Source of the DNA: Candidatus Eutrophobius brisbanensis
GTDB taxonomy: Bacteria > Pseudomonadota > Gammaproteobacteria > Eutrophobiales > Eutrophobiaceae
Assembly: GCA_038131795.1 (NCBI GenBank)
Contig: JAYPQE010000003.1
Coordinates: forward strand, 1,446,048-1,510,047
Direction: 5' to 3'
DNA length: 64,000 bases
Part shown: positions 1 to 36,934 of the stretch, piece after piece
Numbering within the stretch: position 1 is the first letter of the stretch
How the letters are laid out: every line of letters begins with the position of its first letter
Position numbers and translations under genes: made by a program
The notes under the pieces: model-generated
Told to the model about the DNA's origin: nothing
What the model saw: the letters and a program-made list of their open reading frames with translations, nothing else
The model's database searches: none

Positions 1-470
1 GAATTCATAATCCATACCGGCGTATGGGCCGCCAGGGCAACCGCACCATCGATCCCATCTGAGAAGTCCTCTGCCGTTGCCAGGGTGACATGCCCTCCCC
101 CTGAACAACCATATTGAATGACTTTATCTGGTGTACCATACTTTTCAACAAACATGTTTTGTACCACCCTCAGATTACCGATCTCATGGGCCGGGTCATA
201 CTGCCATTTGCGCAATGCATGGCGTGCCGTGCCGGCAACTGCATAACCATTCTCCAGTAATCCCATGACACGGTCCTCATTAGGCCCCATCATGTTCGTG
301 ACAAAATCCAGATCCCGTATCAGTACTTTATTCCAGTTATCGGGCACGGTGATTCGATATGCCGTCCCGTCCGCCAAGGTCCCGGATTCATCTTCATACT
401 GTGCGAATACATTTGAACCCCATAAAACCATGGAAAAAATTCCGACAAAAAATAATATGCGTGATTTCAT
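1..470 (-). CDS. Secreted alpha/beta-hydrolase-like protein; the 3' end runs off the window
   Basis: The reverse-complement reading frame starts at the ATG at 470. It encodes the signal peptide MKSRILFFVGIFSMVLWGSNVFAQ and a G-C-S-G-G nucleophile-elbow motif (QYGCSGGGH). The frame stays open to position 1. Confidence 0.5.
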   Translation of the reverse strand, partial: MKSRILFFVGIFSMVLWGSNVFAQYEDESGTLADGTAYRITVPDNWNKVLIRDLDFVTNMMGPNEDRVMGLLENGYAVAGTARHALRKWQYDPAHEIGNLRVVQNMFVEKYGTPDKVIQYGCSGGGHVTLATAEDFSDGIDGAVALAAHTPVWIMN

Positions 471-4362: not shown

Positions 4363-5607
4363 CTATGCAGCTTCTAATGCTATTTCTTGGCCTGTTGGAT
4401 CTATATGCGAATAGATTAGCTTGTATAATGCCGTATACAATTGCTTCTGACCCGCAAAGCCTGCCTGTGACGCCATCCAGGGATTGTCTTCCCTCTTCTC
4501 CCAATCTATTAGTTCAAGGGGTTTCATTTTCTTATGCATAGCCTTGTCGATATTAATATCATAGTCTTGATGAGCCTCCAGTGCGCTTGTGACAATATCC
4601 CTACCCAACCTTGACAAAGAAGCAACGCCCACCAATTCTTTCAAGCGATATTTAATTTCCACTTCCTCTTCTTCACCGGTATCCGGGTCTACTTCAATTC
4701 TTGTTTTACCGTTCCATGCATCTGGAGAAAACTCAGAGATTAACTTCCAAAATGGTTTTGCAAAATCCTCTAGCGGATTCATACTCAACGATTCAATCCT
4801 TTCAAGAACCTCATTTGTAAACATATTTGAAACAGAACGCCTTAAACCTTCATAGGTAACTGCATAGTTAGGATTCCTGGCGCCTGTCATGTTTACGCTT
4901 TCAAACCATACGGAATTTTTGTCTCTTACAAGGCCAAATGCTATCTCTCGAATCTTCTGAGAATGAGATTTATCAGAAGTTTCAGTAATATCACCTTTCG
5001 TGACTTCAATTAACGCTTTCGGCAGCTTTCTCTGAGTGCTGTTAATGACATTAAATATTTCTGCTTCATCCTCAATGTTAAGTCTGAAAAAAAACTCAAT
5101 AGGCACAACGGGGTCAAAATCATCATAGTGTTGACGTGCCCACAATAAACCTCCCCTTCTATGTTGACCATCAATAACAGACATTACAGCCCCTCCCCAC
5201 TTCTTTTTAATAGCTTTGTATTCCTTATCCTGAAATAACCCTACGAATTCGCTAATGTCTGCATCAGACTTTAGCCTAACCGAGATTAGCAAAGGAGGAA
5301 TATTGGCTTTGTGGTCATAGTAGTATCTACCGATCTGAGGAAACCGCTTCTCATCAGGATTCCTTTGATAACCATGATTTCTTGGGGCAGGTGAATCAGG
5401 ATCATTAGAATCATATGTGCTAATAAAAAGCTCTTTTAAATCATAGGCTTCCAAGCAACTACTTGCTTGACGGAATGGTGATGTCCACGTCACCTTATTT
5501 GGTACTGGCAAAATATCTATATTATTCATGGGCTTATCTCCTAAATTATAATTAGTAACAATGTGCATGCTTGCGATAAGTTTGCTTAACGTTTTGTACA
5601 ATGTCAA
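4363..5607 (-). CDS. DGQHR-domain protein (DndB-like, ParB/Srx nuclease-like superfamily)
   Basis: Contains the literal motif VIDGQHRRGG. Its length (414 aa) is typical for DndB-like DGQHR proteins. It lies inside the tRNA-Arg-bounded AT-rich islet, and no dndACDE or ssp genes are nearby. Confidence 0.7.
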   Translation of the reverse strand: MTLYKTLSKLIASMHIVTNYNLGDKPMNNIDILPVPNKVTWTSPFRQASSCLEAYDLKELFISTYDSNDPDSPAPRNHGYQRNPDEKRFPQIGRYYYDHKANIPPLLISVRLKSDADISEFVGLFQDKEYKAIKKKWGGAVMSVIDGQHRRGGLLWARQHYDDFDPVVPIEFFFRLNIEDEAEIFNVINSTQRKLPKALIEVTKGDITETSDKSHSQKIREIAFGLVRDKNSVWFESVNMTGARNPNYAVTYEGLRRSVSNMFTNEVLERIESLSMNPLEDFAKPFWKLISEFSPDAWNGKTRIEVDPDTGEEEEVEIKYRLKELVGVASLSRLGRDIVTSALEAHQDYDINIDKAMHKKMKPLELIDWEKREDNPWMASQAGFAGQKQLYTALYKLIYSHIDPTGQEIALEAA

Positions 5608-7261: not shown

Positions 7262-7945
7262 ATGATTGAATTAAAAGACCTGGGTATGTCCTACACCCTG
7301 GAATCAGGGACATTAAATGTCCTCAACAGTGTTGAGGTATTTATTGGTGATGGCGAGACCGTCGCCATAGTTGGCCCCTCAGGTTCTGGAAAGACCACAT
7401 TATTATTATTACTGGCAGGGCTGGAGTTACCTCAGCAGGGCGATATCAAGCTGGATGGGATCAGTTTGAGTGAACTGTCTTCCGATGAACTGGCCGATGT
7501 TCGCCGGGACAACCTGGGGATCATCTTTCAGTCATTTCACCTGGTCCCCAGCCTGACGGCTTTGGGCAATGTGACCTTACCCCTGGAGATCGCAGGCAAG
7601 GAAAATGCAAAACAACGGGCCAGTGAGTTACTTGAAAAAGTTGGTCTGGCTGAGCGCATGGACCATTACCCATCACAGTTGTCTGGTGGAGAGCAACAAC
7701 GCGTCGCCATTGCCCGTGCACTGGTGCATGCACCAAAGATGGTTCTGGCCGATGAACCTACCGGTAACCTTGATATAAAAACCGGTGCAAAAATCATCGA
7801 ACTTCTGTTTAATCTGAATGCAGATGCCAGCTCCACTCTGGTACTAGTGACCCATGATGAGGCCATTGCCAGGCGCTGCCAGCGGGTGCTCAGGCTCCAT
7901 GAGGGCAAATTGATTGAGGATGAATCCCATGCCCTTTCTAATTAA
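7262..7945 (+). CDS. ABC transporter ATP-binding protein (LolD/YbbA-like)
   Basis: Walker A GPSGSGKTT, signature LSGGEQQRVAIARAL, Walker B LADEPTGNLD. It overlaps the downstream permease gene by 32 nt. Confidence 0.9.
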   Translation: MIELKDLGMSYTLESGTLNVLNSVEVFIGDGETVAIVGPSGSGKTTLLLLLAGLELPQQGDIKLDGISLSELSSDELADVRRDNLGIIFQSFHLVPSLTALGNVTLPLEIAGKENAKQRASELLEKVGLAERMDHYPSQLSGGEQQRVAIARALVHAPKMVLADEPTGNLDIKTGAKIIELLFNLNADASSTLVLVTHDEAIARRCQRVLRLHEGKLIEDESHALSN

Positions 7946-10445
7946 CCTTGCCTGGCGGGACCTGAAATCCAGCGGCCGGTCTCTGTGGATCTTCTGTGCC
8001 TGCCTGGTATTGGGGGTAACCCTGGTATCGGCTTCCAGTGGTCTGTATCAACTCATTAACATAGGTCTACTTGCCGACACCCGTGCCTATATGGGGGGCG
8101 ATGTGGAAGTGGATTCCAAGCAACCCTTACCCGAATATGTAATCGACTGGATGAACCAGAATGGTGACGTCTCCATGGTCACTGAAGTGGACACCATGCT
8201 GGGTACCGATACCGGTTTCTTACGAGTGGAGCTGCAGAGTATGGACGAGCTGTACCCATTATATGGGGAGCTGGTCCTGGATCCTGCAAAACCCCTGCAG
8301 GAGATCACGGCCTTTGCAGATGGCTACTGGGGCGTCGCCATAGACCCTGTCCTGGCAGACCGGTTGGAGCTCGGGCTCGGTGACAGTGTATATGTAGGTG
8401 CATTAGAGATGAAGGTGCGGGCAATGGTGCTTAACCAGCCGGACCGTAATCTCAGTGCTGACTGGCGGGGCACACCGGTATTATTGAGTGAGACTGCATT
8501 ACAGGAATCAGAACTCATCCAGCCGGGCAGCAGAATTGATTATGACTATCACGTCAGGACAGACATGAATGCCTATACCTGGCAGGCCATGTTTTATGAT
8601 CAATACCCCTATGAAATCTGGGAAGTTCGTACATTCTATGACCGTAGCCGCAGGATCTCCGAGCGCCTGGGACAGATCGCATCGGGTCTTTTGATCATTG
8701 GTTTTAGTACCCTGTTTATCGGTGGCCTGGGGGTATTTAACAGTATCCAGACCTATCTGCAGGGCAAGCTGAAAACCATCGCTACCTTGAGGTCATTGGG
8801 GCTGCGAAATCGTCGCCTGGCCATTGTTTATCTGTTACAGGTGGGAATACTCAGTGGAGGTGCAAGTCTGTTTGGTGTTTTTCTTGGTGGTGGCCTGTCA
8901 TTAATCGGCGCAAAGGTGGTGGCTACCCAGATACCGGTGGCCATGACGGTATCGAGCTTGATCATTCCTAACCTTATTGCCCTGTTCTTTGGACTGTCTA
9001 CTGCGTACACCTTTGCCTTACCGGCAATCGGTCGCGCCCTGTCTGTCAAACCGGCGACCCTGTTCCGGGGCAGCGCGGAGACAGATAAAGGCACACCTTA
9101 TATGTGGCGAATCGCTACTATGACCTGTGGAATTTCTATCGTGTTGCTTGTCATTATCGCCCTTCCCGATCCCCTGTTTGGCCTGGGCTTTGTTTCAGTG
9201 GTGGGATTGTTGCTGTTATTACTGGATATGGTCGTCAAATTTATCCGCAATACCGCCAGGAAACTGGACCAATATCCGCTGGTAAACAATAAATTTGTGT
9301 TAAGGCTGGCCATCGCCAACCTGCACCGACCCGGTGCCCCGCTGAGGATTTCATTGTTATCACTGGGTTCTGCTTTGACCCTGCTGGTAGCATGTACCCT
9401 GGTGGTCACGTCCCTGGTCAGGACCATCAACGAAACTATCCCTGCGGAGTCCCCTGCCCTGGTGCTGTATGACGCCTCCAACGATCAGGTGGACGCGGTG
9501 GTCGCTGCCATAGAAGAATCGTCCAGTACCCGCCGGGTGGATACCACACCGCTGGTTCGTTCACGAATCTCAGCAGTTAATGGTATGGGTCTTGCGGAAC
9601 GTTATGACCTAAGTGAAGAACAGTTTCGGGATGCCTCCCAGGATGAATACAAACTGAGTTATTCATCCAATAATATCGATAATGTCACCCTGGTGGACGG
9701 TGCGTGGTGGGAAGGTGACATCACCGGGTTGCCGAAGATGGCCATGGAAGACCGCGAGGCGGGCCAACTGGACCTGAAGGTGGGGGACGTGATTACCTTT
9801 GACATAGAAGGTCGTACTCTTGATGCTGAGATCGCTGCTATCTTCAGTCAAAAGGGTGTGCAGACCAAGTTCTGGTTTGAAGGTATTCTGTCCAATGGCG
9901 CCCTGGACAGTTTCATCAACCGCCATGTGGGTGCGGCGTATATGGATGATAACGAGGCCATTGCCGCCCAGCAAAGGATTGCGAGAGTTGCACCTAATGT
10001 AATTTCTGTGCGCACCGCCTCCCTGCTGGCATCCGCCCGGAACATACTGGGCAAGGCCACGGCAGGCCTGACCGTGGTTGCCGCCGTCAGTCTGAGTGCC
10101 AGCCTCCTGGTATTGATAAGCGTCATGGCAGCCGGGCGAACGAGACAGATCTATGACGCCACGGTGTTATATTCTCTTGGGACCCGCATGTCGGCAATCA
10201 AGAAGAGCCTGCACATGGAATATATCCTGCTGGCAATTGTGACTTCCCTGTTTGCAGTGTTACTGGGTGCCGCCATTGCCCTGCCCTTATTACACATTCG
10301 GCTAAAACTCCCGTCAGAAGACCTGCTCTGGGTGGGCCTCCTGGTTGCGGTATCTGTCAGTGGAATTTCCCTCAGCCTGGGATCGAAATATTTATTGAAA
10401 AGATTGCAGGTTAAACCTGCCGTCCTGTTACGTGGCGGAAACTGA
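7914..10445 (+). CDS. ABC transporter permease with duplicated FtsX domains (YbbP-like)
   Basis: 843-aa protein with two FtsX-type four-helix transmembrane blocks and large periplasmic loops. It is translationally coupled to the ATPase. Confidence 0.85.
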   Translation: MRMNPMPFLINLAWRDLKSSGRSLWIFCACLVLGVTLVSASSGLYQLINIGLLADTRAYMGGDVEVDSKQPLPEYVIDWMNQNGDVSMVTEVDTMLGTDTGFLRVELQSMDELYPLYGELVLDPAKPLQEITAFADGYWGVAIDPVLADRLELGLGDSVYVGALEMKVRAMVLNQPDRNLSADWRGTPVLLSETALQESELIQPGSRIDYDYHVRTDMNAYTWQAMFYDQYPYEIWEVRTFYDRSRRISERLGQIASGLLIIGFSTLFIGGLGVFNSIQTYLQGKLKTIATLRSLGLRNRRLAIVYLLQVGILSGGASLFGVFLGGGLSLIGAKVVATQIPVAMTVSSLIIPNLIALFFGLSTAYTFALPAIGRALSVKPATLFRGSAETDKGTPYMWRIATMTCGISIVLLVIIALPDPLFGLGFVSVVGLLLLLLDMVVKFIRNTARKLDQYPLVNNKFVLRLAIANLHRPGAPLRISLLSLGSALTLLVACTLVVTSLVRTINETIPAESPALVLYDASNDQVDAVVAAIEESSSTRRVDTTPLVRSRISAVNGMGLAERYDLSEEQFRDASQDEYKLSYSSNNIDNVTLVDGAWWEGDITGLPKMAMEDREAGQLDLKVGDVITFDIEGRTLDAEIAAIFSQKGVQTKFWFEGILSNGALDSFINRHVGAAYMDDNEAIAAQQRIARVAPNVISVRTASLLASARNILGKATAGLTVVAAVSLSASLLVLISVMAAGRTRQIYDATVLYSLGTRMSAIKKSLHMEYILLAIVTSLFAVLLGAAIALPLLHIRLKLPSEDLLWVGLLVAVSVSGISLSLGSKYLLKRLQVKPAVLLRGGN

Positions 10446-10456
10446 TTATTTAGTAA

Positions 10457-10485
10457 AAGGGGGCAAACTTATGTCTGTCCCCCTT
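10457..10485. repeat. Imperfect palindrome GGGGGCAAACTTATGTCTGTCCCCC (a terminator-like stem-loop that belongs to a repeat family with 13422-13445)
   Basis: Stem ggggg...ccccc with one mismatch and no T-tract. It lies 10 bp after the permease stop. A near-identical perfect palindrome sits at 13422-13445. Confidence 0.4.
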
Positions 10486-10560
10486 GTCCCAGATCATGGC
10501 GGTTCAGACTGAGAAATGCTTTAATTCAGCCAATTAAATATAGAACTTACGGAGTGACTT

Positions 10561-11193
10561 ATGAAAATTCTTATAAACTCGATTCTACTTACATTTATTG
10601 GTTTGTCCCTGTCATGTGCCCAGACACAGAAGCAAAATGTACACGAGGCCCATCACGCCAGTCTCGATGCCCATCTAACCCATATTCAACAGATCAAAGA
10701 CCCTGCAGAACGTAAAAGGATGTTACGTATGCATATACAGATGATGAAGGAACAGATGGAATCCATGGCATCAATGGGACATGGCGGAATGGGCGGTGGC
10801 ATGGACCATGGCGGTGGCGGTATGGGCGGTGGTATGGGCGGCATGGACCACGGTGAAGGTGGTATGGGTGGATGTAACATGTGTAGCGGTGGTATGGATG
10901 GTATGAACATGGGAGGTGATGGCCCAAGTGGCGGCATGGGAGGTATGGGTCAGGGTAGCAGTGCCCCTGTCACCCCTCCCCATGGAGACAGGGGAGAATG
11001 CTCAAATTGCCATAGTGATGGCCGGGGCCAGGCTTCAGGTAATATGAGCGGTGGCATGGGCGGCATGGACCACGGCGGTGGCGGTATGGGTGGTGGCATG
11101 GGCGGTATGATGCAACACCATAATATGATGGTAAACATGATGAAACAGATGATCAGTGTCCAGGAGTTACTACTGGATATGGTAGATGATTAG
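10561..11193 (+). CDS. Periplasmic ZraP/CpxP/Spy-family-like protein with Gly-Met-His-rich metal-binding repeats
   Basis: Signal peptide, then an N-terminal helical region with LTHIQQ- and MxxM-type motifs. The tail carries GGMGGGMDHGGGGMGGGMGGMDHGEGGMGG repeated twice, plus CNMCSGG and CSNCH. This resembles the GMGMGYGGCGGGGHMGMGHW tail of ZraP. Confidence 0.45.
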   Translation: MKILINSILLTFIGLSLSCAQTQKQNVHEAHHASLDAHLTHIQQIKDPAERKRMLRMHIQMMKEQMESMASMGHGGMGGGMDHGGGGMGGGMGGMDHGEGGMGGCNMCSGGMDGMNMGGDGPSGGMGGMGQGSSAPVTPPHGDRGECSNCHSDGRGQASGNMSGGMGGMDHGGGGMGGGMGGMMQHHNMMVNMMKQMISVQELLLDMVDD

Positions 11194-11249
11194 TCTGTCC
11201 AGATAACCGGGCCACCCTCTACTCAGGAGAGGCCACAAGCAGTACATTA

Positions 11250-11278
11250 ATGTGCGCCTACGGCGCACATATTTTTTA
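11250..11278 (+). terminator. Rho-independent terminator
   Basis: Perfect hairpin ATGTGCGCC-tac-GGCGCACAT followed by TTTTTT, 57 bp after the stop of the Gly/Met-rich protein gene. Confidence 0.7.
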
Positions 11279-11486
11279 TTGGGCCCTGATTTGAAGTGCA
11301 TGCCCATCGTTTTAGTAACAGGGTGACGGGTTTTGCTTTTACTGGAATAAAGTGTAGAAGAGACTTGCCAAAAAATCATAATCGACATTTTAGCCCTTAC
11401 TCTTCACTCGTCACACCTCACTCCTAACTTATCACCTACTCATGTACAATACGCTCATTAGATGAAGTTAACCCAAGGACAACCCA

Positions 11487-12728
11487 TTGACCAACGGACC
11501 TGACGAGCGCACTGATCGCGCATTTAAATACCCAAATTTTAGAAATTTTGTAGTTGCAAAGTTCTGTACGATCTTTGCGGTACAGATGCAAAGTGTCGCC
11601 ATTGGCTGGCAGGTCTATGAAATTACCGGAGACCCCCTGGACCTTGGTTTAATCGGTCTCGCGCAGTTTCTACCTTTTGTGATTTTGATTCTCCCTGCAG
11701 GACAGGTGGCCGATAGATTAAACCGACGATTGATACTGGGTTTTTGTTATGCAACTGAGGCCATTTGTGCCGCGTTATTACTTGCATTGACCTTTATTGG
11801 TATTACCACCGTCTGGCCGGTACTTGCGGTGCTAGTATTGTTCGGCTCGGCCCGTGCATTTTCCCAGCCTGCCTCACAGGCCATAACCCCAAACCTGGTT
11901 CCCGCATCAGCGTTCCCAAATGCTATTGCGCTGAATTCGTCTTCTGGACATGTTGCAAGAATAGCCGGACCTGCGGCAGGTGGAATGTTATATATCCTGG
12001 GACCTAATGTCGTCTATTCCAGTGTTGCATTCATGCTCTGCTGTTCAGTCTTCCTGATGACCAGGGTCAAACTACCGGAAATCATTCGCGCAAAAGAGCC
12101 GGCCAGCTGGCATACCGTATTTGAAGGTTTACGTTTCGTAAAATCCCGTCCCATGATCCTGGGGGCAATCTCTCTGGATTTATTTGCGGTTTTATTTGGT
12201 GGCGCGGTGGCATTATTACCTGCATATGCCAGTGACATTCTGCACACCGGGCCAGAGGGGCTGGGGATATTACGTACAGCACCAGCCATCGGTGCGGCCA
12301 TCACCGCAGCAATTCTTGCCTATAGTCCCGTTATTCGAAATGTAGGTAACTGGTTATTTGGTGGTGTGGCTGTATTTGGCGTGGCGATTATTGTTTTTGG
12401 TCTTTCTGAAACGTTTCTATTATCACTTGCTGCCCTGATTGTTATGGGTGCAGGAGACATGGTTAGTGTGTATATCCGTCATATGCTGGTACAGCTTGAA
12501 ACACCGGATGAGATCCGTGGCCGGGTCAGTGCAGTAAATGGGGTGTTCATTGGTGCTTCGAATGAATTAGGTGAGTTTGAATCCGGCGTCACCGCCGCCT
12601 GGTTTGGCCTGGTACCTGCCGTTGTCATTGGTGGTGCGGCCACCTTGATAGTGACCGGGCTGTGGATGAAATTTTTTCCGCAACTGAGCAAAATGGACAG
12701 ACTGCCGGGGCATTATAAGGACAGGTAG
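11487..12728 (+). CDS. MFS transporter (EntS/enterobactin-exporter-like)
   Basis: 12-TM MFS fold. The N-terminal region resembles the EntS family (QVADRLNRRLIL motif between TM2 and TM3). Confidence 0.75.
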   Translation: MTNGPDERTDRAFKYPNFRNFVVAKFCTIFAVQMQSVAIGWQVYEITGDPLDLGLIGLAQFLPFVILILPAGQVADRLNRRLILGFCYATEAICAALLLALTFIGITTVWPVLAVLVLFGSARAFSQPASQAITPNLVPASAFPNAIALNSSSGHVARIAGPAAGGMLYILGPNVVYSSVAFMLCCSVFLMTRVKLPEIIRAKEPASWHTVFEGLRFVKSRPMILGAISLDLFAVLFGGAVALLPAYASDILHTGPEGLGILRTAPAIGAAITAAILAYSPVIRNVGNWLFGGVAVFGVAIIVFGLSETFLLSLAALIVMGAGDMVSVYIRHMLVQLETPDEIRGRVSAVNGVFIGASNELGEFESGVTAAWFGLVPAVVIGGAATLIVTGLWMKFFPQLSKMDRLPGHYKDR

Positions 12729-13445: not shown

Positions 13446-15140
13446 TTATTCAGGCAACGCAAACACCATCAACATACTGCTGCCAAACTGAACATTCAGT
13501 TCCGGATACATGGTGGCAAAGTGGCGGGTACCGGCAGAACCACCGCCTATGGCAACGGCCACATACTGCTTGCCATTGGCTTCATAACTGATGGGATAAC
13601 CGGTAATGGCAGACCCCAGGCCAATCTCCCAGAGTTCCTCTCCGGATTCGGCATCCACGGCACGAAAATAACGGTGCAGATCACCGTAAAACACCAGGTT
13701 ACCGCCTGTTGCCAGCACCGATCCCAACGCAGCCCGTTGGTCCAGGTTCCAAAGCAGATTCCCGGTATTTGCCGATATAGCCGACAGCCTGCCCACCTGT
13801 TCATTGGTGCCTTGCATGAAATGCAGACCACCATAATCCAGACCGGAACGGCTTTGTTCTAACGGGACAACCTTGAATTCTGAACAGGAACTGGAGATTG
13901 GGCTATACACAACCTGGGTCTTTGGACTATAGGCGTTAGTCTGAAATAATTTCCCGCCTCGCATACCGGGACAGACCAGGTGAACATCCCCTACCTGCCT
14001 GGGAATAATGGCCTCATTGGGTGTAATTGCACCGGTCTCAGGATCAATATTGGAATATAGATTCTGGTATTCCACCAGTTGCTTGTTCCACAGGTGTTCA
14101 CCAGTCTCGCGGTCAAATGCCCAGAGGATGCCGGGCTTACCCAGAAGATAAATCACCTTGCGCATGGTGCCGCCGATCATGACATCGGCCAGGATGGGGT
14201 TGTCCTGGTGGTCCATGTCGTAATTGTCCCGTGGCTGCATCTGGTAAAACCACCGAATCTTTCCGGTCTCTGCTTCCAGTGCGAGGACAGAGTTGGTGTA
14301 AAGCAGATCACCGTCCCCTGTGCCTTTGAGAATACCCGGATAGGGATAGGGACTGGCAGTAGACCAGTAAACCAGTTTCAAATCCGGATCATAACTGCCG
14401 GATAACCAGAATGAGGCCTTCCTTCTACCTTCATAAGGTACCCCACCCCAGCTATTGAAGTGTTCTGGCGGATCATCGGGACCAGCGACGGAGGAACGAC
14501 GCCATAATTCCTGACCGGTATTGGCATCATGGGCAATGAGGGCACAGGCTTTGGATGTTCCCACACCGCAGGTCTGGCCGGCAAATATAATCCCATCGCC
14601 CACAATGGGTGGCGATGAATAATTGACCCGATCATCTGGATCCCCGGTCTGGATCTCCCAGACCATCTCCCCTGTTTTTGCATCCAGGGCAACGAGAAAG
14701 GCATCATCTGTAGTGAATAAAATCTTTTCCTGGTAGATGGCCAACCCACGGGTGGTACCATTCATACCCCTGGGCAGGCGGCGCTGGTATTCCCAAATCA
14801 AATTTCCATTACTGGCGTCCAGGGCCTGGACCTTACCACCAGCATGGGAAAGAAACATGATACCGTTATAAACGATTGGCTCCTGCTCGGTTTCACCATC
14901 ATTAAGATTCCATGCCCACGCCAACTGCAGGTTTTTAACATTGTCAGCATTGATCTGCTCCAGCGGACTATATCCATTGGCATTATGGTTTCCGCGCCAG
15001 CGTAACCAGTTGGCAGGATCGGGATTATTAATGGCCGCATCATTGACCGGCGTAAAGTCCTGTAACTGCGCGAAACTGATCTGAGAAAAAAAAGTTAATA
15101 TTGCAAAAACCAGAAGTGTGCCTCTTCGAATTAAAGTCAT
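13446..15140 (-). CDS. PQQ-dependent dehydrogenase (quinoprotein alcohol/sugar dehydrogenase family), periplasmic
   Basis: Signal peptide, then W-rich eight-bladed beta-propeller repeats typical of PQQ enzymes (LQLAWAWNLNDGE, GNLIWEY, GEMVWEIQTGD, GQELWRR, GKIRWFYQ, GEHLWNKQ, GNLLWNL, GEELWEIGLG). The adjacent-Cys pair of MxaF/ExaA is not visible. Confidence 0.7.
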   Translation of the reverse strand: MTLIRRGTLLVFAILTFFSQISFAQLQDFTPVNDAAINNPDPANWLRWRGNHNANGYSPLEQINADNVKNLQLAWAWNLNDGETEQEPIVYNGIMFLSHAGGKVQALDASNGNLIWEYQRRLPRGMNGTTRGLAIYQEKILFTTDDAFLVALDAKTGEMVWEIQTGDPDDRVNYSSPPIVGDGIIFAGQTCGVGTSKACALIAHDANTGQELWRRSSVAGPDDPPEHFNSWGGVPYEGRRKASFWLSGSYDPDLKLVYWSTASPYPYPGILKGTGDGDLLYTNSVLALEAETGKIRWFYQMQPRDNYDMDHQDNPILADVMIGGTMRKVIYLLGKPGILWAFDRETGEHLWNKQLVEYQNLYSNIDPETGAITPNEAIIPRQVGDVHLVCPGMRGGKLFQTNAYSPKTQVVYSPISSSCSEFKVVPLEQSRSGLDYGGLHFMQGTNEQVGRLSAISANTGNLLWNLDQRAALGSVLATGGNLVFYGDLHRYFRAVDAESGEELWEIGLGSAITGYPISYEANGKQYVAVAIGGGSAGTRHFATMYPELNVQFGSSMLMVFALPE

Positions 15141-15248: not shown

Positions 15249-15524
15249 TTACTTTTTCAAACCAAAATTATTTGAAAGATAGTCGACTACGATATCTATT
15301 TCATAGTCCTGTAACGGTGCACCCTGCATGACCATCTGGTTAACCACAAAGCGCCATTGTTCAGGACTACGACTTGAGTCTGTGATATTTGTCAGGTCAT
15401 GACACATGGTACAGACATCATCAACGATATCACTGCCCTCACCTTCCGGCAGGGCCGTTTGTGAAATTACGGGCGTTGTAAAAATATACAACAATAGCAG
15501 GGAAAGGATACGTCCTGTTTGCAT
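15249..15524 (-). CDS. Small periplasmic mono-haem cytochrome c
   Basis: Signal peptide plus a single CTMCH (CxxCH) haem-binding motif in a 91-aa protein. It lies 14 bp downstream of the ankyrin gene and upstream of the PQQ dehydrogenase. Confidence 0.65.
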   Translation of the reverse strand: MQTGRILSLLLLYIFTTPVISQTALPEGEGSDIVDDVCTMCHDLTNITDSSRSPEQWRFVVNQMVMQGAPLQDYEIDIVVDYLSNNFGLKK

Positions 15525-15538: not shown

Positions 15539-17137
15539 TTATTGAGGCTGAGCGGTGGCATCACCGTAATCGATGCTGATATCCCGACCAAAAAAGTTAG
15601 AATAGGCATCAGGAGTGTTCATTTCATCACGGGAAATTACTGTCGCGCCTAGCTTGACAAGTAATTCGGCTGTGTCTTCATGTACACCATATGCGCCCAC
15701 ATTATTGAAAGAGGGGGCAATACCCATAGACATACTCCACGCAGTCTCACCATTGGTATTTCTGGCATCCACCTCGGCACCGTGATCGACGAGATACTGA
15801 ACAACATTGGTGGTCCCGGTAAACGCGGCTTTGTGTAATGCAGTTTCACCATCTTCATTGACCTCGTTAACATCAACTCCCTGGGCCAGAATGGCCTTGA
15901 CAGCTTCCAGGGCCCGCGCCCTTTTTGCAGGGGAGGTATTGTCCTCCTGGTTCATACCGGTACAGGATGACCGGGCAGCCACCATTAATGGGGTATTGCC
16001 ATTTTTGGTGGTGATGGTCGCGTCTGCCTCGTATTTACTCAACATTTGTAGTAATTCTGCATCAGCGGAAACGGCGGCCAGGAAATAAGGTGTCGCACCC
16101 ACCATATTACTGACACTTTCACAGGAACTTCTAATGGCCGGTCCAATTAAATAACTCTTCTCAATCTGTGCATTGGGATCGGCACCGGCGTCCAACAGGG
16201 CCTTGACCAATTTAGGCTGGTTGCTTGGGCGAACCCGGTAGGAAGGATCATAGGTAATGCCATGCATGTACGACAGACCGTTCTGATGGGCATGATGCAG
16301 GGCCGTTACTCCATTCTCATCTTTGGATTCATGATCGGCACCGGACTTAAGAAGAAAAATTGCCAGATCTTCGTGACCGCTGGCAGTGGCGATTACCAGC
16401 GGGTTTCCGTATTCAGCTGTTGCTTCATTGATATTGGCACCGGCATCAAGTAACAAGCTTGCGGTTTCAATATCACCGGCACGGGCAGCATACATCATTG
16501 CAGTAAATCCACCGGGCGAGGGTTTCCATTCACATATACGACAGGTATTGGGAACTCGTTCCTCTGACGGTAAGGTTTTTGGAGAAATATCAGCACCGTG
16601 CTCCAATAACAACCGGGTGATTTCAGCGTAACCACCTGCAGCCGCCCACATTAGCGGTGTCTGCCCCATTTTGTTTTCAGCTACATTCGGATTGGCACCG
16701 GCTTTCAATAACGCCGCCACAGCATCGGTGGTCCCGGTACGAACACAATCCATAAGCAAGGTTTCACCTGACCATTTTTCGGCATTGGCATCGGCACCGG
16801 CATCCAGCAAAATCTTCACCACTTCACTGTTGCGGTTGGTGCAGGCCAGGGATGCAGGCGTTACACCATACACGTTCTCCGCATCCGGGTCTGCGCCTTT
16901 CTTTACCAGTGCTTTAATCGTATCGATATCATTCCGATGCACAGCGTAGTGTAATGCCGTTGTGCCATCTGCTTTCTTGCTATTGACATCAAGCTTTGAT
17001 TTCAGCATTGCCTGAATAATTTCCGAATCACCTTTCTTAACGGCATTGATAAATTCCATTCCGGAATCTGCAAGTACTGTTGTAGAAATGGCTGAAAACA
17101 GAAATACTGATAATGCATTTCGTAAAGACTGGTTCAT
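15539..17137 (-). CDS. Secreted ankyrin-repeat protein (third gene of module 1)
   Basis: Multiple 33-aa ANK repeats (e.g. DGTTALHYAVHRNDIDTIKALVKKGADPD). I placed the start at the ATG at 17137, which begins a signal peptide (MNQSLRNALSVFLFSAISTTVLA) and is preceded by the Shine-Dalgarno sequence GGGAGA. The ORF track extends to 17188. It is paralogous to 30033-31514 and 35450-36931. Confidence 0.8.
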   Translation of the reverse strand: MNQSLRNALSVFLFSAISTTVLADSGMEFINAVKKGDSEIIQAMLKSKLDVNSKKADGTTALHYAVHRNDIDTIKALVKKGADPDAENVYGVTPASLACTNRNSEVVKILLDAGADANAEKWSGETLLMDCVRTGTTDAVAALLKAGANPNVAENKMGQTPLMWAAAGGYAEITRLLLEHGADISPKTLPSEERVPNTCRICEWKPSPGGFTAMMYAARAGDIETASLLLDAGANINEATAEYGNPLVIATASGHEDLAIFLLKSGADHESKDENGVTALHHAHQNGLSYMHGITYDPSYRVRPSNQPKLVKALLDAGADPNAQIEKSYLIGPAIRSSCESVSNMVGATPYFLAAVSADAELLQMLSKYEADATITTKNGNTPLMVAARSSCTGMNQEDNTSPAKRARALEAVKAILAQGVDVNEVNEDGETALHKAAFTGTTNVVQYLVDHGAEVDARNTNGETAWSMSMGIAPSFNNVGAYGVHEDTAELLVKLGATVISRDEMNTPDAYSNFFGRDISIDYGDATAQPQ

Positions 17138-17168
17138 AAGGTCTCCCTGCTCTGTCTCTCGTAATTGT

Positions 17169-18506
17169 TTATGATACGGACAAGGCATTCAACGTGCCTG
17201 TACTGTCACCAAAGTTCTCGATTTCCAGACCGAGCTTATCTAACAAGGTCAGGTAAAGATTGCTGATTGGTGTGTCATCCGTATAGCGGATATGTTTACC
17301 ACCTTTCAATTGACCTGATCCGCCGCCAAAGAGAATACATGGCAGGTCTTGCAACAGATGATCATTACCATCACTCATTGAACATGCATACATGAGCATC
17401 ATATTATCCAGCAGGTTTCCTTCGATATCAGGGGTTGAGGCCAGTTTATCGAGGTAATGGACCATTAACTCTGAGTGATAAAGGTTAATCTTGTACAGTT
17501 TCTCCAGGCTGATCTCATTGCCCTGGTGGTGTGACAGAGAATGGTGAACGTCTGGCACGCCAATCTCAGGATAGGTGCGGTTACTCTGCTCCGGTCCCGT
17601 CATCAAGGTAATCACCCGGGTCATGTCCGTTTGATAGGCCATAACATTGAGATCAAACATCAATTTCAGGTGCTCGGCAAAATCTTCCGGGATTCCGGCC
17701 GGTGGTGATTCCAGTGACAGGCCCTGGCCCGTCTGTTGCTCGGCCAGTTCGATTCGATGTTCGATATCACGCATGCCGTCCATATATTCTGTCAGTCTCA
17801 GCTTGTCTTCTGGACTGACCTGTTTCATCAGGTCTTTCGCTGCCTCACTGACTGAATCCAGGATGCTCTGCTCTTTCTTGATCCGTTCCAGTCTCATGGC
17901 AGGATTGGTGCTGTCGCCAAAAAGGCGCTCGAAGACAGCACGTGGACGGTTTTCGATCGGCAGTGGCTGGGTGGGTGTCTTCCAGGAAAGGGTACTGATA
18001 AAGGCGCAGCTCCAGCCCTTCTCACATTGACCCACGGCATCGCTGCTGTGCAGGCCCAGTTCCAGTGACGCCAGCTGGGTCTTTTTACCCAGTTCCTGTG
18101 CAGCAATCTGGTCGATTGACGTTCCTACCACGCCCTCCCGTTTGGGATGAACACCCGTGAGGAATACCGCACCGGCACGTTCGTGGGGTGCCGATTCACC
18201 TTCACCAGGTTTGGCATAGCCCTCCATATTGGCCATACCACTTAGGACGGTCATTCTGTCCTTGTACGCCGCCAATGGCTGCATGATGGGTGTCAGTTCA
18301 TAGTTCGTACCTGTTTCCGTGGGTGTCCATTTAGTCATGTTCATGCCATTCGGTGCATAAACAATGGACAGCCTTCTTGGTATCTCTGCCCGATCTTTGA
18401 CAGATGCCAATGCAGGAAACATGGCATCCAGGACCGGCAAGGCGATGCTTGCACCCGCGCCTTTTAAAAATGTCCTTCTGGGGATAGATTTCTTAAATAT
18501 CAACAC
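17169..18506 (-). CDS. DUF1552 (HXXSHH) family protein with a Tat signal (second gene of module 1)
   Basis: Tat motif SIPRRTFLKGAGASIALPVLDA and the HXXSHH motif (DVHHSLSHH). GTG start, preceded by GAGGAGGG. It overlaps the upstream gene by 14 nt. Confidence 0.8.
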   Translation of the reverse strand: MLIFKKSIPRRTFLKGAGASIALPVLDAMFPALASVKDRAEIPRRLSIVYAPNGMNMTKWTPTETGTNYELTPIMQPLAAYKDRMTVLSGMANMEGYAKPGEGESAPHERAGAVFLTGVHPKREGVVGTSIDQIAAQELGKKTQLASLELGLHSSDAVGQCEKGWSCAFISTLSWKTPTQPLPIENRPRAVFERLFGDSTNPAMRLERIKKEQSILDSVSEAAKDLMKQVSPEDKLRLTEYMDGMRDIEHRIELAEQQTGQGLSLESPPAGIPEDFAEHLKLMFDLNVMAYQTDMTRVITLMTGPEQSNRTYPEIGVPDVHHSLSHHQGNEISLEKLYKINLYHSELMVHYLDKLASTPDIEGNLLDNMMLMYACSMSDGNDHLLQDLPCILFGGGSGQLKGGKHIRYTDDTPISNLYLTLLDKLGLEIENFGDSTGTLNALSVS

Positions 18507-20901
18507 GGTCCGGGACCCTCCTCGTTTGATAAGATGAACTGTTTACAATGGCAACAACCAGAGACGGCAGGCTGTGTTGCTCGGCCTTTGTCTCCTCAAT
18601 AATTGATCTGATTATAGGTGCATCGGTATGGCGAATTTCCCTGCCCAATGCATAGGTGAGCATTTTTTCAACCAGGGTAAAGGTAAAGTCATACTGCCTT
18701 TTTTCACTGAGCACCTGTTTGAGCTCTGATGGTCCTTCAAATGCTGTTCCATCTGGCAGGGCGCCTGTGGAATTAATAGGTGCAGCTGATTCACCATCAA
18801 CTGTTCGCCATTTACCAATGGCGTCAAAGTTTTCCAGGGCAAACCCCAGTGGATCCATGATCTTGTGGCAACTGGCACAAACTGGGTTTGCGCGGTGCAT
18901 TTCCATACGTTCGCGCATGGTCAATATCACACCTGCTTCGTTTTTGTCCTGTAGTCCTGGGACATCATTTGGCGGTGGCGGTGGCGGTACACCCAGTATG
19001 TTCTCCAGAATCCACTTGCCGCGTATAGTCGGTGCGGTGCGGTTGGCATAGGACGTCACCGTCAGGATGCTTCCCTGGCCCAGTAATCCACCACGGCCTT
19101 CACCATCCAATGCTACTTTACGAAAATGGTTTCCAAAGATACCGTCGATTCCATAGTGACCCGCAAGCCTTTCATTTAGAAAGGTGTAGTCAGCCGTCAA
19201 CATTTCCATTAACGGGCGTTCTTCACGCATGATATGGTCGATAAACAACTCAGTCTCTGTACGAAAAGCCTCTCTCAAGTTATCGTCAAAATACGGGAAG
19301 ATATCGATGTCCGGTGCAGCCACATTCAATTTCCCAAGTGTCAGCCATTGGGAGGCGAAGTTTTTCACCAGGGCAATCGAGCGCGGGTCATCAAGCATAC
19401 GCCTGACCTGCTTTTCCAGAACTTTCGGGTCGTTTAACTCACCTGACTCGGCCGCGGCCAGGAGTTCCTCATCAGGAATACTGCTCCAGATAAACAATGA
19501 CAGGCGGCTTGCCAATTCGAGATCGGGTAAATCATAAATCTCACCTTTAGCCACGTTCACAGGGACTTTTTCGGTAATAAATAAAAACTCAGGTCCTGCC
19601 AGCATTCTTTCGATGGCAACACCGATGCCCTGTTCAAATCCACCATTGGCAACTCCCTGGTCAAAAAATCCCATCAAGACGTCAACTTCTTTTACGGTGG
19701 GTGACCGACGGTAGGCCTTGCGTGCCAGGGACGAAAGGATGGCCCTGGCACAATCTGTGTCCTGGTTATTTTGCGGACTGCAGATAAGAATTTTTTCCCT
19801 GCTCGCTGTCTCCCCCGGACCGCGAACCTCATAGGGACCGCCTATGGCAATGGTCCGAACACCAGGATTCCCTCCCTTAAACTGGGTGTAGTCGTACATG
19901 GTATGGTCAGGAATTAGTGGCCCTTCCGGTAAAAATATATCTTGCAAGAAAGAAGCAGTAATCAACTGTTCACCGGCCTTTGCAGTAAACCGCACTTCAA
20001 GGTCCTGATCGGAATAGCGTTCATAGGCCTCCTGCCTGATATCCCCCTGTGCCGAGGTGGAATACAACTGGGATGATTTACCGAATTTCTGTCCGCCTAC
20101 GGTATACAGCTTCAAGCGTTCATCATTCATCCGAATATCAAGCTGGTGCGGCCGGTTGGTCATCCCGCGAATATAGTCGCGGTAGTTTCGCTGCAGCCTG
20201 ACCTGGATCACATACTCACCATCCATGGGAAAATGATGCCGAACTGCCATGCCTCCACGGGAACCAAACGGCATGTCTTCATTCATGCGCTCGTCCTGCT
20301 TTAAGGCCTGGGGTAATGTGTAATATTCAAATGCAGGTGTGATATCAGGATCACCCAGGGCCTGGTTACGGACCTTACGTGCAGCGGCAATATAGCGCTC
20401 AATCAATAACGGTGACAGGGTCAATACACCGCCGATGTTATCAAAATTGAACATGATGGCATCAGGTGGCAATAAGGTGTCACCATTGATGTCTACCGCA
20501 AACAGATCCCGGATGGCATTGACATACTCTGTCCTGTTCAGGCGCCGCATGGACGGCCTGCCAGGCTCAGGATTTTGTCTGGCGTGTCGGTTCAGGCCAT
20601 TTTCAAGGAAGCTGACAAAAGATTCATAGGTGGCTTCATCTGGTCTTGGCATGCCCGATGGCGGCATGGCCTTGGCACGCAATTTACGTAACACCTTCTC
20701 CCAGCTTTCACCATCAGCACCCAGATTGCTGGTATCAACTTGCTGTAGACTAAATGCCGCTGTCTTTAATGTATCGTTATGGCAACCAACACAATATTGG
20801 TTGACCGTATCTTGATAAAACCCGGCATCCTGTTGTGCCAGGACTGAGTTTGAAATAAGTAGCAGCGCGCTGCCCAAGAATGCGATAAGACCTTTTACCA
20901 T
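18493..20901 (-). CDS. Secreted DUF1587/DUF1592/DUF1595/DUF1588/DUF1585-type protein with two CxxCH motifs (first gene of module 1)
   Basis: Signal peptide, N-terminal CVGCHND and C-proximal CASCHKIMDPLGFALENFD motifs, and a G/P-rich linker (PPPPPP). It is 802 aa long. The family is planctomycete-type and typically pairs with DUF1552. Confidence 0.8.
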   Translation of the reverse strand: MVKGLIAFLGSALLLISNSVLAQQDAGFYQDTVNQYCVGCHNDTLKTAAFSLQQVDTSNLGADGESWEKVLRKLRAKAMPPSGMPRPDEATYESFVSFLENGLNRHARQNPEPGRPSMRRLNRTEYVNAIRDLFAVDINGDTLLPPDAIMFNFDNIGGVLTLSPLLIERYIAAARKVRNQALGDPDITPAFEYYTLPQALKQDERMNEDMPFGSRGGMAVRHHFPMDGEYVIQVRLQRNYRDYIRGMTNRPHQLDIRMNDERLKLYTVGGQKFGKSSQLYSTSAQGDIRQEAYERYSDQDLEVRFTAKAGEQLITASFLQDIFLPEGPLIPDHTMYDYTQFKGGNPGVRTIAIGGPYEVRGPGETASREKILICSPQNNQDTDCARAILSSLARKAYRRSPTVKEVDVLMGFFDQGVANGGFEQGIGVAIERMLAGPEFLFITEKVPVNVAKGEIYDLPDLELASRLSLFIWSSIPDEELLAAAESGELNDPKVLEKQVRRMLDDPRSIALVKNFASQWLTLGKLNVAAPDIDIFPYFDDNLREAFRTETELFIDHIMREERPLMEMLTADYTFLNERLAGHYGIDGIFGNHFRKVALDGEGRGGLLGQGSILTVTSYANRTAPTIRGKWILENILGVPPPPPPNDVPGLQDKNEAGVILTMRERMEMHRANPVCASCHKIMDPLGFALENFDAIGKWRTVDGESAAPINSTGALPDGTAFEGPSELKQVLSEKRQYDFTFTLVEKMLTYALGREIRHTDAPIIRSIIEETKAEQHSLPSLVVAIVNSSSYQTRRVPDRVDI

Positions 20902-31514: not shown

Positions 31515-31522
31515 AATTCCTT

Positions 31523-36931: not shown

Positions 36932-36934
36932 AGG

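Follow-up and report, generated by a model that had tools for sequence, protein, structure and literature searches.

ZraP has a short Gly/Met/His tail that also contains Cys, and the magnetochromes of MamP function in Fe(II) oxidation. The only MFS copper transporter known to us is CcoA. In SilE, HxxM and MxxH motifs placed on helix faces bind Ag+, and the protein folds into helices on binding (PMC5008109); PcoE has been described as a first-line Cu sponge (PMC7558416). In CueO, a partly disordered Met-rich domain facilitates Cu+ recruitment (PMC11494321). The magnetochrome motif, with a minimal unit of [P/T/H]HX5-9CX2CH, has been called endemic to magnetotactic bacteria (PMC3971196). Here we compare with these systems a secreted protein encoded in a 64-kb window, the whole stretch of DNA that was analysed (Table 1).

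Table 1. Coordinates of the gene, its encoded features and its neighbours in the window.
Feature	Position	Strand	Remarks
YbbA/YbbP-type ABC ATPase	7262..7945	+	upstream
Double-FtsX permease	7914..10445	+	upstream
Shine-Dalgarno-like GGAG	10551..10554	+	6 nt 5' of ATG; direct sequence reading
Complete ORF, 210 aa + stop	10561..11193	+	ATG start
Signal peptide, aa 1-20, MKILINSILLTFIGLSLSCA	10561..10620	+	invariant A20/Q21 in close family
His-rich N-terminus and two predicted helices (aa 29-43, 48-78)	10642..10794	+	AlphaFold2 pLDDT 75-86
First Gly/Met/His/Asp repeat block, aa 75-104	10783..10872	+	7-aa (21-nt) units GGMDHG(G/E), GGMGGGM
CNMC, aa 105-108, CxMC(S)G module	10873..10884	+	
Magnetochrome-like c-type haem-attachment motif (putative), TPPHGDRGECSNCH, aa 138-151	10972..11013	+	
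Second Gly/Met/His/Asp repeat block, aa 161-183	11041..11109	+	holds second 17-aa exact copy
C-terminal Met/His-lined helix, aa 179-209, GGMMQHHNMMVNMMKQMISVQELLLDMVDD	11095..11187	+	AlphaFold2 pLDDT 74-81
Terminator-like hairpin, 9 bp (6 G-C), 3-nt loop, then ATTTTTTATT T-run	11250..11280	+	
MFS_3 transporter (EntS-like, H+ antiporter type), 413 aa	11487..12728	+	NCBIfam TIGR00900 E 2.7e-51, EntS E 5.8e-45; both scores under their cut-offs

The ORF encodes a product of 24% Gly, 16% Met and 7% His. A first-pass annotation had treated it as a genuine gene, and its presence in two independent assemblies and in about 25 close relatives bears this out. The frame conserved among the relatives is the plus-strand one; the minus-strand ORFs within the gene are 62-83 aa long and rich in P, H and T. 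In two contigs from other sequencing runs the gene differed by 1 and 2 nucleotides and the protein was identical, and an orthologue in a Gammaproteobacteria MAG (locus L015) showed 72% identity (tblastn) with unchanged architecture. An assembly artefact, which the annotation had named as a possible refutation, is contradicted by these independent contigs and by the L015 orthologue, all of which keep the gene and its architecture.

The hydrophobic N-terminal signal sequence described previously is present, and signal peptidase I cleavage just before Q21 is probable. A lipoprotein anchor was considered as a family trait and rejected: the pre-cleavage Cys is missing in many relatives, and the A/S-Q junction is retained. 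Since distant members without this Cys still keep x-[YF]-[AS] followed by Q, the lipobox is not conserved. His is abundant in the mature N-terminus, and distant members start with QDH. The clean terminator reported earlier was also recovered, as a GC-rich hairpin with a T-run 3' of the gene, at 11250-11270, and loci L015, L017, L019 and L021 have a hairpin at the equivalent position. An Rfam scan of positions 10350-11600 returned no riboswitch and no other family. Comparison of the orthologous upstream regions by eye revealed no shared motif and no regulator or metal-responsive operator.

The mature protein contains two Met/His-lined helical segments. The His/Met-rich helical segment quoted in the annotation is present as described: the first of these helices, RKRMLRMHIQMMKEQMESMASMGH, has invariant H58, M61 and M62 and nearly invariant M72 and H74. 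In the C-terminal helix, M183, M184, Q185, H187 and M190 are invariant and H186 and M197 nearly so. HxxM motifs start at aa 58, 74, 186 and 187, and MxxH motifs at aa 183 and 184. AlphaFold2 gave three-helix models of moderate confidence (pTM 0.38) in which the first Gly/Met/His/Asp repeat block is disordered (pLDDT <50), and a Foldseek search with the predicted model, at this pTM of 0.38, gave no match at E<2.

The linker between the helices required two corrections. Where about 140 residues had been described as almost pure G/M/H/D, the low-complexity region covers aa 72-190 (119 aa), of which about 105 aa lie between the helices; 73% of it is G/M/H/D, and about 30 aa in its middle are non-repeat sequence. 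The 30-aa block said to occur twice, GGMGGGMDHGGGGMGGGMGGMDHGEGGMGG, has a single occurrence, at aa 75. No exact repeat is longer than the 17-aa GGMDHGGGGMGGGMGGM, whose copies lie at aa 79 and 167. Its two 51-nt DNA copies (10795-10845 and 11059-11109) are 90% identical and belong to a set of degenerate 21-nt (7-aa) units. The Cys motifs do lie between the repeat blocks as annotated, CNMC at aa 105-108 and CSNCH at aa 147-151. The CxMC module is variable among relatives: it reads CSMCSG in the L015 orthologue and in family member P0008, is C-x5-C in P0004 and is absent in P0005.

The first-pass annotation likened the protein to the ZraP/Spy/CpxP family, which would make it a chaperone of the periplasm whose metal-binding tail resembles that of ZraP but is expanded. 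The protein shares with ZraP its secretion, its helical character and a Cys-containing Gly/Met/His tail, and it contains one LTxxQ-like string, LTHIQ (aa 39-43). This string is not conserved, however, and relatives have LAHVQ, LEHVQ, LEHIS or LERIR at the same position. When the profile check was run, none of 17 members matched PF07813 (LTXXQ) or PF13801 (Metal_resist) at E<=10, and no CpxP, Spy, ZraP or CnrX chain was returned in three solved-structure sequence searches at E<=10. Weak LTXXQ matches were seen in 6 of 40 wider-family members (best E 4.2e-5); six wider-family members re-scanned singly, which may differ from those six, gave no LTXXQ match. In one relative, P0277, the family N-terminal module is fused to a Metal_resist/LTXXQ domain (LTXXQ match aa 182-268), but this domain is distinct and separate from the homologous part. 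Comparison by hhalign with genuine LTXXQ domains (P0006 and P0277) gave probabilities of 0.2-3% or a trivial 16-column match outside the domain. The link of P0277 to LTXXQ is best read as association, not homology. With profile, motif and solved-chain comparisons all against it, a ZraP/Spy/CpxP identity is refuted at the sequence level, and we consider a chaperone of this type highly improbable.

Searches of the known families were similarly unproductive. Apart from MCR/MamP and helical matches due to chance, comparison of the window protein and the 17 members with Pfam and NCBIfam at E<=10 yielded nothing. Neither SilE nor PcoE was matched in these libraries at E<=10, although the libraries may not include models of them. 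Among solved-structure sequences, searches with two family profiles and with the full-length protein brought up no meaningful relative.

By profile comparison, the window protein belongs, as a diverged branch, to a large superfamily that has no name. Its members are small secreted proteins, which share a layout of a Met/His-lined helix, a Gly/Met linker and a second Met/His-lined helix. With the low-complexity region taken out first, hhalign aligned the family profile with a 40-member wider-family profile at 98.4% probability (E 4.6e-15) over 71 columns that include both helices. The family profile found 163 cluster representatives by hmmsearch at E<=1e-3 (50% clustering level), many over most of the profile. 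The wider family gave 193 matches at E<=1e-5, all of them unannotated, and neither Pfam nor NCBIfam has a model for it. Many of its members carry one or two Cys inside Met runs (MxCPMM, MMKCH). A single weak NCBIfam match to PtrA, a periplasmic copper-induced Pseudomonas protein, was noted among the 40 wider-family members.

Members of the wider family occur largely in copper loci. Metagenome contigs were scanned with a profile built from nine closer sequences, and P1B-ATPases, CusA-like RND proteins and multicopper oxidases were counted as copper-type genes. A wider-family member lay at most 7 kb from such a gene in 21 of 30 metagenome loci of at least 5 kb, and a P1B-ATPase was present in 17 of the 30. 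Four of the five genomic contexts examined for superfamily members were copper or heavy-metal loci. In Azoarcus the gene order is DUF2933, ICMT, the wider-family member and a YHS-type P1B-ATPase; in Pelomicrobium the member adjoins a CopA oxidase, CopB, a cupredoxin and a P1B-ATPase. The Thiobacillus member is flanked by a Cus-like RND pump and an HMA-type P1B-ATPase, and the Variovorax member, the sole wider-family find in the plasmid collection, lies within a plasmid cop island. The window protein itself had no match in that collection.

These contexts support the general idea of the first-pass annotation, a secreted periplasmic protein for metal buffering or chaperoning with Met-rich chemistry of the Cu(I)/Ag(I) type. 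We judge it slightly better than even that the protein works in the periplasm like SilE and PcoE, as a sponge or chaperone for Cu(I)/Ag(I). It would be exported by Sec as a soluble periplasmic protein, with a core of two amphipathic helices whose faces carry Met and invariant His, HxxMM in the first and MMxHHxxM in the second, joined by a long flexible Gly/Met/His/Asp linker of GMDHG-type units. Thioether and imidazole side chains may capture Cu(I) and possibly Ag(I), and His and Asp could hold Cu(II). The bound metal, presumed to be one of these, would be buffered in the periplasm or handed to a partner, as with SilE, PcoE and the Met-rich insert of CueO/CopA.

The window's own branch lies outside copper loci, which counts against a copper role. 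Copper-gene queries against the 64-kb window (tblastn) gave no match, and the window and all loci of this branch have an MFS_3 neighbour and no copper genes. Some relatives adjoin HupE/UreJ Ni/Co-type permeases, so the metal could be other than copper. One such gene lies directly upstream of the L015 orthologue (E 6.2e-12) and two lie upstream in L020, and TonB/ExbBD genes occur near the members in L019 and L020. Together with the His-rich mature N-terminus and the QDH start of distant members, these neighbours are consistent with a nickel/cobalt binder, or a general His-rich buffer of divalent metals, serving uptake and not copper detoxification. However, the window lacks HupE/UreJ genes, and their place beside the gene is not conserved. 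The conserved positions are mostly methionine, which by established coordination chemistry favours soft Cu(I)/Ag(I), and the wider family goes with copper-type ATPases, oxidases and Cus-like pumps. We consider an uptake buffer of this kind very unlikely.

A role with no specific metal was also weighed, in which the protein is a sacrificial methionine sink for periplasmic oxidants or a Met-bristle chaperone for unfolded clients. Its Met content and the Met that forms the hydrophobic faces of both helices would suit such a role, and the oxidation and repair of periplasmic Met is a recognised theme in copper and chlorine stress (PMC9302797). This explanation leaves the invariant His and the GMDHG units unaccounted for, and the genes that accompany the superfamily are those of metal efflux and oxidation; neither Msr nor oxidative-stress genes were seen in the Azoarcus, Pelomicrobium and Thiobacillus contexts. 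We give it very little probability at all and retain the Cu(I)/Ag(I) sponge or chaperone as the preferred reading.

The annotation had placed the gene between an ABC exporter and an MFS exporter. Both are present, but only the MFS_3 gene is a conserved neighbour: it lies directly downstream on the same strand in every close-family locus with downstream DNA. The ABC/FtsX pair is confined to the window's clade (loci L003-L013 and L015), and in the distant clade an amidohydrolase and an unknown gene take its place. The MFS_3 proteins are 71-98% identical across the close-family loci. Their invariant residues, listed with no MFS_3 background for comparison, include C87, C94, D324-M325 and H332-M333 and contain no pair of MxxxM and HxxxM. 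A functional link between the protein and the transporter is inferred from this arrangement.

In the window's lineage the linker carries two additions, the CxMC pair and a motif of about 13 residues, P-H-x-D-R-G-x-C-x-x-C-H. The stretch PHGDRGECSNCH (aa 140-151) fits the minimal magnetochrome unit, as do the corresponding stretches of the L015 orthologue, P0004 and P0005. The Pfam MCR model (PF18509) was matched at E 7.8e-4 and 19.4 bits, under the curated gathering cut-off of 30.4 bits; it was matched by all three CxxCH-bearing members in a 17-sequence alignment, for which this E value was the best. A stricter published pattern, a regular expression with an upstream hydrophobic cap and a hydrophobic residue after CHx (PMC3971196), was matched by no family member. 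The residues after CH in the window protein are S-D, whereas the strict pattern requires x-[IVMLFY]. The closest solved-structure matches of the motif were both haem sites, in the Shewanella small tetrahaem cytochrome (E 0.053) and in MamP (4jj0, E 0.062), and were marginal. MPHRDRGPCAACH of MamP aligns to PPHGDRGECSNCH with equal spacing, and the motif and the second haem site of MamP have P, H, D, R, G, C, C and H in common.

The motif is conserved among its bearers. PPHGDRGECSNCH is kept in four members (the window protein, the L015 orthologue, P0004 and P0005) whose overall identity is only about 47-54%, and motif bearers occur in both branches of their clade's basal split. The 24 aa around the motif are identical in the window protein and the L015 orthologue, and 21 of 25 haem-motif codons are identical between them, too alike for a meaningful dN/dS ratio. 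Most family members are without CxxCH, and CxxCH is therefore not central to family function. Other CxxCH proteins with a signal peptide are encoded in the window, so the host evidently matures c-type cytochromes. Because it matches both the minimal magnetochrome unit and the second haem site of MamP, PPHGDRGECSNCH probably serves as a site for c-type haem. H141 is proposed as its distal ligand, with C147, C150 and H151 as the other ligands. The site would be a minimal bis-His site of the magnetochrome kind, and haem attachment there would make the protein redox-active.

The presence of CxxCH agrees with the first-pass annotation, but a metal-thiolate reading does not hold up as well, since the conserved P-H-x-D-R-G-x-C-x-x-C-H fits a c-type haem site better. 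That the Cys motifs are haem-free is nevertheless a possible alternative, in which CNMC and CSNCH are thiolate/His/Met sites for Cu(I)/Zn(II) or a disulfide pair in what is otherwise the same metal sponge. Cys is a recurrent ligand-type residue in the Met runs of many wider-family members and occurs in the tail of ZraP, P0008 carries the CxMC module without CxxCH, and the MCR score falls short of its cut-off. A metal-thiolate site, however, would not require the eight conserved positions, which mirror the spacing and residues of the crystallographically defined haem site of MamP. All four motif-bearing members have an invariant His straight behind the second Cys, and an exported CxxCH of any kind is a substrate of the cytochrome c maturation machinery. 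We regard the haem-free alternative as doubtful.

The haem site and the metal sponge could also act together. The protein might then be a minimal cytochrome, with a magnetochrome-like, solvent-exposed bis-His haem c set inside a disordered Met/His copper trap in a non-magnetotactic host and exchanging electrons with thioether-held copper. The haem might turn Cu(I) into Cu(II) with no need for oxygen or a multicopper oxidase, or it might serve uptake by reducing Cu(II); in either case it might work jointly with the adjacent MFS_3 transporter. We consider this combined function unlikely; if true, it would make the magnetochrome a general metal-redox module and not a magnetosome speciality.

If confirmed, three points of wider significance would follow, concerning the family, the magnetochrome and the MFS pairing; they stand on sequence and genomic context. 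The superfamily would probably be an overlooked periplasmic part of bacterial copper and silver handling, found mostly in copper-resistance loci. A conserved single magnetochrome copy within a copper-type protein would extend the known distribution of the smallest haem-binding unit to ordinary Gammaproteobacteria, marine or host-associated, and tie that unit to a second metal. We know of no earlier case in which an EntS-like MFS transporter constantly accompanies a Met-rich protein of the periplasm, and this pairing suggests a two-part system.

Like ZraP, Spy and CpxP, the window protein is predicted to be secreted, helical and periplasmic. CcoA was considered because the one constant neighbour of the window family is an MFS transporter; unlike CcoA, this neighbour is of the MFS_3/EntS-like exporter type, and no CcoA-like MxxxM/HxxxM pair (PMC7558416) was seen among its invariant residues. 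With the MCR domains of MamP, MamE, MamT and MamX the protein shares the minimal unit, with the five-residue spacing of MamP (PMC3971196). It differs from them in having a single copy where they have a tandem pair, in being a soluble secreted protein with no membrane anchor, PDZ or protease domain, and in lacking the hydrophobic capping residues of the full domain. The window has no mam genes, and the relatives come from ordinary Gammaproteobacteria MAGs.

The GMDHG unit is shared with the CueO/CopA oxidases: four are found in the Met-rich insert of a CopA oxidase in L028, one of the wider-family loci, and three in the window protein. In contrast to these oxidases, the Met-rich segment of the window protein is free-standing, with no oxidase domain, and any redox activity would stem from haem and not from copper centres. 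To our knowledge, SilE and PcoE contain no Cys motifs and no CxxCH, whereas the window protein has both. It also differs from them in having a Gly/Met repeat linker between two long helices and in its location outside a sil/pco operon. Like SilE and PcoE, the window protein is small, secreted and largely disordered, with His and Met spaced i to i+3/i+4 on predicted helices and with HxxM and MxxH motifs on the helix faces, and its wider family is found in metal-efflux loci.

The ORF of the window protein has a GGAG 6 nt 5' of its ATG and encodes 210 aa of extreme composition (51 Gly, 33 Met and 14 His). Every string quoted in the first-pass annotation was found in the protein. However, the 30-aa block said to occur twice was present as a single copy, the longest exact repeat being 17 aa, and the low-complexity region, put at some 140 aa consisting almost wholly of G/M/H/D, measured 105-119 aa and was 73% G/M/H/D. 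At the DNA level the repeat region consists of degenerate 21-nt (7-aa) units, and its two best-matching 51-nt copies share 90% identity. The proposed terminator was confirmed as a hairpin with a T-run. Contigs from two other sequencing runs carried the gene with 1 and 2 nt differences and an identical protein, and an orthologue in a Gammaproteobacteria MAG (L015; 72% identity by tblastn) had modules identical in kind and order. The assembly artefact considered in the first-pass annotation was thus dismissed.

Coordinates of features in the window, the window protein and related loci (aa, residues of the protein named; other positions, nt)
Feature	Position	Strand	Remark
Met-rich ORF	10561-11193	+	
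Signal sequence	aa 1-20		hydrophobic
His-rich stretch			HEAHHAS, after signal sequence
Predicted helices	aa 29-43 and 48-78		AlphaFold2
Disordered stretch, ~100 aa	aa 75-180		AlphaFold2 pLDDT <50
C-terminal helix	aa 179-209		AlphaFold2
Copies of 17-aa repeat	aa 79 and 167		
CxMC (CNMC) pair	aa 105-108		
Magnetochrome match (putative haem motif)	aa 138-151		contains CSNCH
Hairpin and T-run	11250-11270		terminator
Met-rich/MFS spacer	11194-11486		~300 nt; 6430-6723 in L015
Region collinear with L015	6155-12721		83-88% DNA identity
DGQHR-domain gene	4363-5607	-	
PQQ-dependent dehydrogenase gene	13446-15140	-	methanol/ethanol family
91-aa ORF	15249-15524	-	
Three-gene cassettes	15539-20901, 30033-35255, 35450-40658	-	tandem, paralogous
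HupE/UreJ-family gene in L015	5066-5737		between FtsX permease and Met-rich genes
Recurrent gene string in L026	6079-7474		
Metal_resist/LTXXQ domain of P0277	aa 150-268		

Querying with the full-length protein in a word-indexed search gave 5 relatives. With the low-complexity linker left out, a profile built on the two helical segments added 11, and a genome scan a further 2. All family members share a signal peptide ending in x-[YF/C]-[AS] and followed by Q, an N-terminal helix (LDAxLxxI...RKxMLxHHxQMM), M-x-G-M-D-H-[GS] units of varying copy number and a C-terminal helix (MMQHHxxMVxMMxxMxxxQExxL). The invariant residues were mostly Met or His (H58, M61, M62, M183, M184, H187 and M190), with M72, H74, H186 and M197 nearly invariant. 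A methionine-sink or chaperone role is a minor possibility for the window protein. Because the Cys of the signal region is missing from many relatives, we read the protein as probably soluble and periplasmic rather than a lipoprotein.

The first-pass annotation had described the protein as ZraP/Spy-like, and the profile, hhalign and motif tests of ZraP/Spy/CpxP membership all came out against this. None of 17 family members matched PF07813 or PF13801 at E<=10, and searches of solved structures with the protein and with two family profiles turned up no CpxP, Spy, ZraP or CnrX at E<=10. Against two genuine LTXXQ domains, hhalign probabilities were 0.2-3%, or the match was trivial and fell outside the domain. 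The single LTHIQ string was not conserved among relatives. Fold searches with predicted structures were uninformative. Membership was effectively excluded at the sequence level, and we regard it as very improbable. On the other side, weak LTXXQ matches were seen in 6 of 40 wider-family members (best E 4.2e-5), and one wider-family protein of 293 aa (P0277) is a natural fusion in which the family N-terminal module and a Gly/Met linker precede a separate Metal_resist/LTXXQ domain of Spy/CpxP type. This fusion is the only link to LTXXQ and points to functional relatedness rather than shared ancestry.

We searched 1.84 billion cluster representatives exhaustively by profile and obtained 163 proteins at E<=1e-3, most of them 110-180 aa long and many matched across most of the profile; a second search with 40 of these as query returned 193 more. 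The architecture comprises a signal peptide, often followed by AEDAHHPE, a first helix (MQxxMxxIRxTxDPxERxxLLxEHMQxMxEQMxxMRGM), a Gly/Met linker, frequently with one Cys, and a second helix (MExRxDMMQxMMEQM). No member had a Pfam domain or a name beyond 'hypothetical protein'. The window-family profile, with low complexity removed, aligned to the wider profile over both helices (98.4% probability, E 4.6e-15), and on this alignment we take the window protein to belong to a large superfamily without a name, as a branch that has diverged and become elaborated.

The wider family was co-located with copper-type genes in both genomic contexts and metagenome loci. Members were flanked by DUF2933 plus ICMT and a YHS-type P1B-ATPase in Azoarcus sp. 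KH32C, adjoined CopA multicopper oxidase, CopB, cupredoxin and P1B-ATPase genes in Pelomicrobium, stood between a Cus-like RND pump and an HMA-type P1B-ATPase in Thiobacillus, and lay inside a cop island on a Variovorax plasmid. No metal genes were found near the Pseudomonas putida member. We searched 80 metagenome loci by tblastn with the neighbours from these genomic contexts and counted the 30 that were 5 kb or longer. A copper-type gene lay within 7 kb of the member in 21 of the 30 (P1B-ATPase in 17, CusA-like in 9, ICMT in 8, cupredoxin in 6 and multicopper oxidase in 4), and an MFS_3 or FtsX neighbour in none. The gene string DUF2933, ICMT-like methyltransferase, Met-rich protein and P1B-ATPase recurred in L026 and in metagenome loci (L034-L113). 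On the Variovorax plasmid, a cytochrome c3-family gene lies directly upstream of the member.

The copper-gene queries had no match in the 64-kb window. Every locus of the window's branch with downstream DNA carried an EntS-like MFS_3 transporter gene immediately downstream on the same strand, usually with a hairpin between. The transporter was 71-98% identical across these loci, while the small Met-rich protein diverges fast. Upstream neighbours varied. The window's clade has an ABC system of YbbA/YbbP type, the distant clade has an amidohydrolase gene together with one of unknown kind, and two branch loci have HupE/UreJ permeases. Ni/Co buffering is a minor possibility here. The constant MFS_3 neighbour may form a functional pair with the Met-rich protein or may reflect gene order kept in a rather narrow lineage, although rearrangement has affected genes to either side of the pair.

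The closest genomic relative, L015, is collinear with the window around the gene and carries an extra HupE/UreJ-family (Ni/Co-type permease) gene; L020, a locus with a distant family member, has two HupE_UreJ genes upstream. Judged by eye, the Met-rich/MFS spacer was conserved between window and L015 about as well as flanking coding sequence. Within it lie the terminator hairpin, whose loop differs between the two, and, preceding a TACAAT-like box, a tract rich in pyrimidines; the spacer had no Rfam match. Further upstream, the DGQHR-domain protein is DndB-like, of the DNA phosphorothioation-associated type (E 8.3e-24, above cut-off). Since related loci carry phage-integrase, SIR2 and HerA-like (DUF87) genes on the corresponding side, upstream of an aldo-keto reductase gene, a variable defence or mobile-element hotspot is suggested.

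The only notable Pfam match of the window protein was a magnetochrome domain (E 7.8e-4; 19.4 bits against a cut-off of 30.4), which was matched in all three CxxCH-bearing members of the alignment. The motif fits the published minimal unit, [P/T/H]HX5-9CX2CH (PMC3971196), with the five-residue spacing of MamP; it does not fit a stricter pattern with hydrophobic caps. When a 39-aa segment was compared with solved structures, the four best matches were all c-type haem sites, led by Shewanella small tetrahaem cytochrome (E 0.053) and MamP (E 0.062), whose MPHRDRGPCAACH aligned to PPHGDRGECSNCH. P-H-x-D-R-G-[ED]-C-x-x-C-H was kept in the window protein, the L015 orthologue and two close relatives (P0004 and P0005), the surrounding sequence being otherwise hard to align. 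Because these four bearers fall on both sides of the clade's basal split when the helical segments are placed in a neighbour-joining tree, the insert was probably ancestral to the clade and lost in shorter members. Beyond the clade CxxCH is rare: it was absent from all 81 wider-family ORFs of the metagenome loci. Among 279 proteins examined, the only wider-family member with CxxCH was P0105 (265 aa), a natural fusion of a Met-rich N-terminal module to a C-terminal extension with YCSQCH, which weakly matched a dihaem-cytochrome-c domain (PF09626, E 0.005, below cut-off). These patterns are consistent with a minimal c-type haem site added in the window's clade, and we put haem attachment just short of an even chance. 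The main rival, in which the Cys motifs form a thiolate metal site or disulfides, appears rather unlikely. The CxMC module is independent of CxxCH: the close relative P0008 has CxMC alone, and P0005 lacks it.

Further secreted CxxCH proteins are encoded in the window, namely the 91-aa ORF by the PQQ dehydrogenase and three PSD/PSCyt proteins, so the host presumably has c-type cytochrome maturation machinery. The 91-aa product has a signal peptide, one CxxCH and no Pfam match; the equivalent gene in related loci weakly matched Dehyd-heme_bind, and the product is probably the cytochrome c partner of the adjoining dehydrogenase. Each of the three cassettes encodes a PSD/PSCyt3-domain protein (~800 aa, two CxxCH motifs), a DUF1552 (HXXSHH) protein (445-459 aa) and a protein with ankyrin repeats (493-549 aa). 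Among bacteria, ankyrin-rich genomes typify host-associated symbionts, such as those of sponges.

What is said here of function we infer from sequence and genomic context. We lean slightly towards a metal-binding role for the window protein, which is the best-supported explanation: it would be a sponge or chaperone for soft metals in the periplasm, with Cu(I) the likeliest of them. Met/His-rich periplasmic metal binders are a known kind of protein; the family is undescribed. No literature description was found of a very long Gly/Met linker with a magnetochrome-like CxxCH in a host without signs of magnetotaxis, or of such a protein paired with an MFS_3 transporter. The present host shows no such sign, since the window holds no mam genes and the relatives are ordinary Gammaproteobacteria MAGs.

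The protein would act in the manner of SilE/PcoE and Met-rich oxidase inserts. SilE binds Ag+ via HxxM/MxxH motifs, folding from disorder into helices (PMC5008109), and PcoE is regarded as a first-line copper sponge (PMC7558416). The Met-rich domain of CueO, equivalent to the CopA insert, is partly disordered and helps to recruit Cu+ (PMC11494321). The window protein resembles SilE in the HxxM and MxxH motifs of its helices, MamP in the spacing of its magnetochrome unit, and the CopA oxidase of wider-family locus L028 in the GMDHG unit, with 3 copies against 4 in the Met-rich insert of the oxidase.
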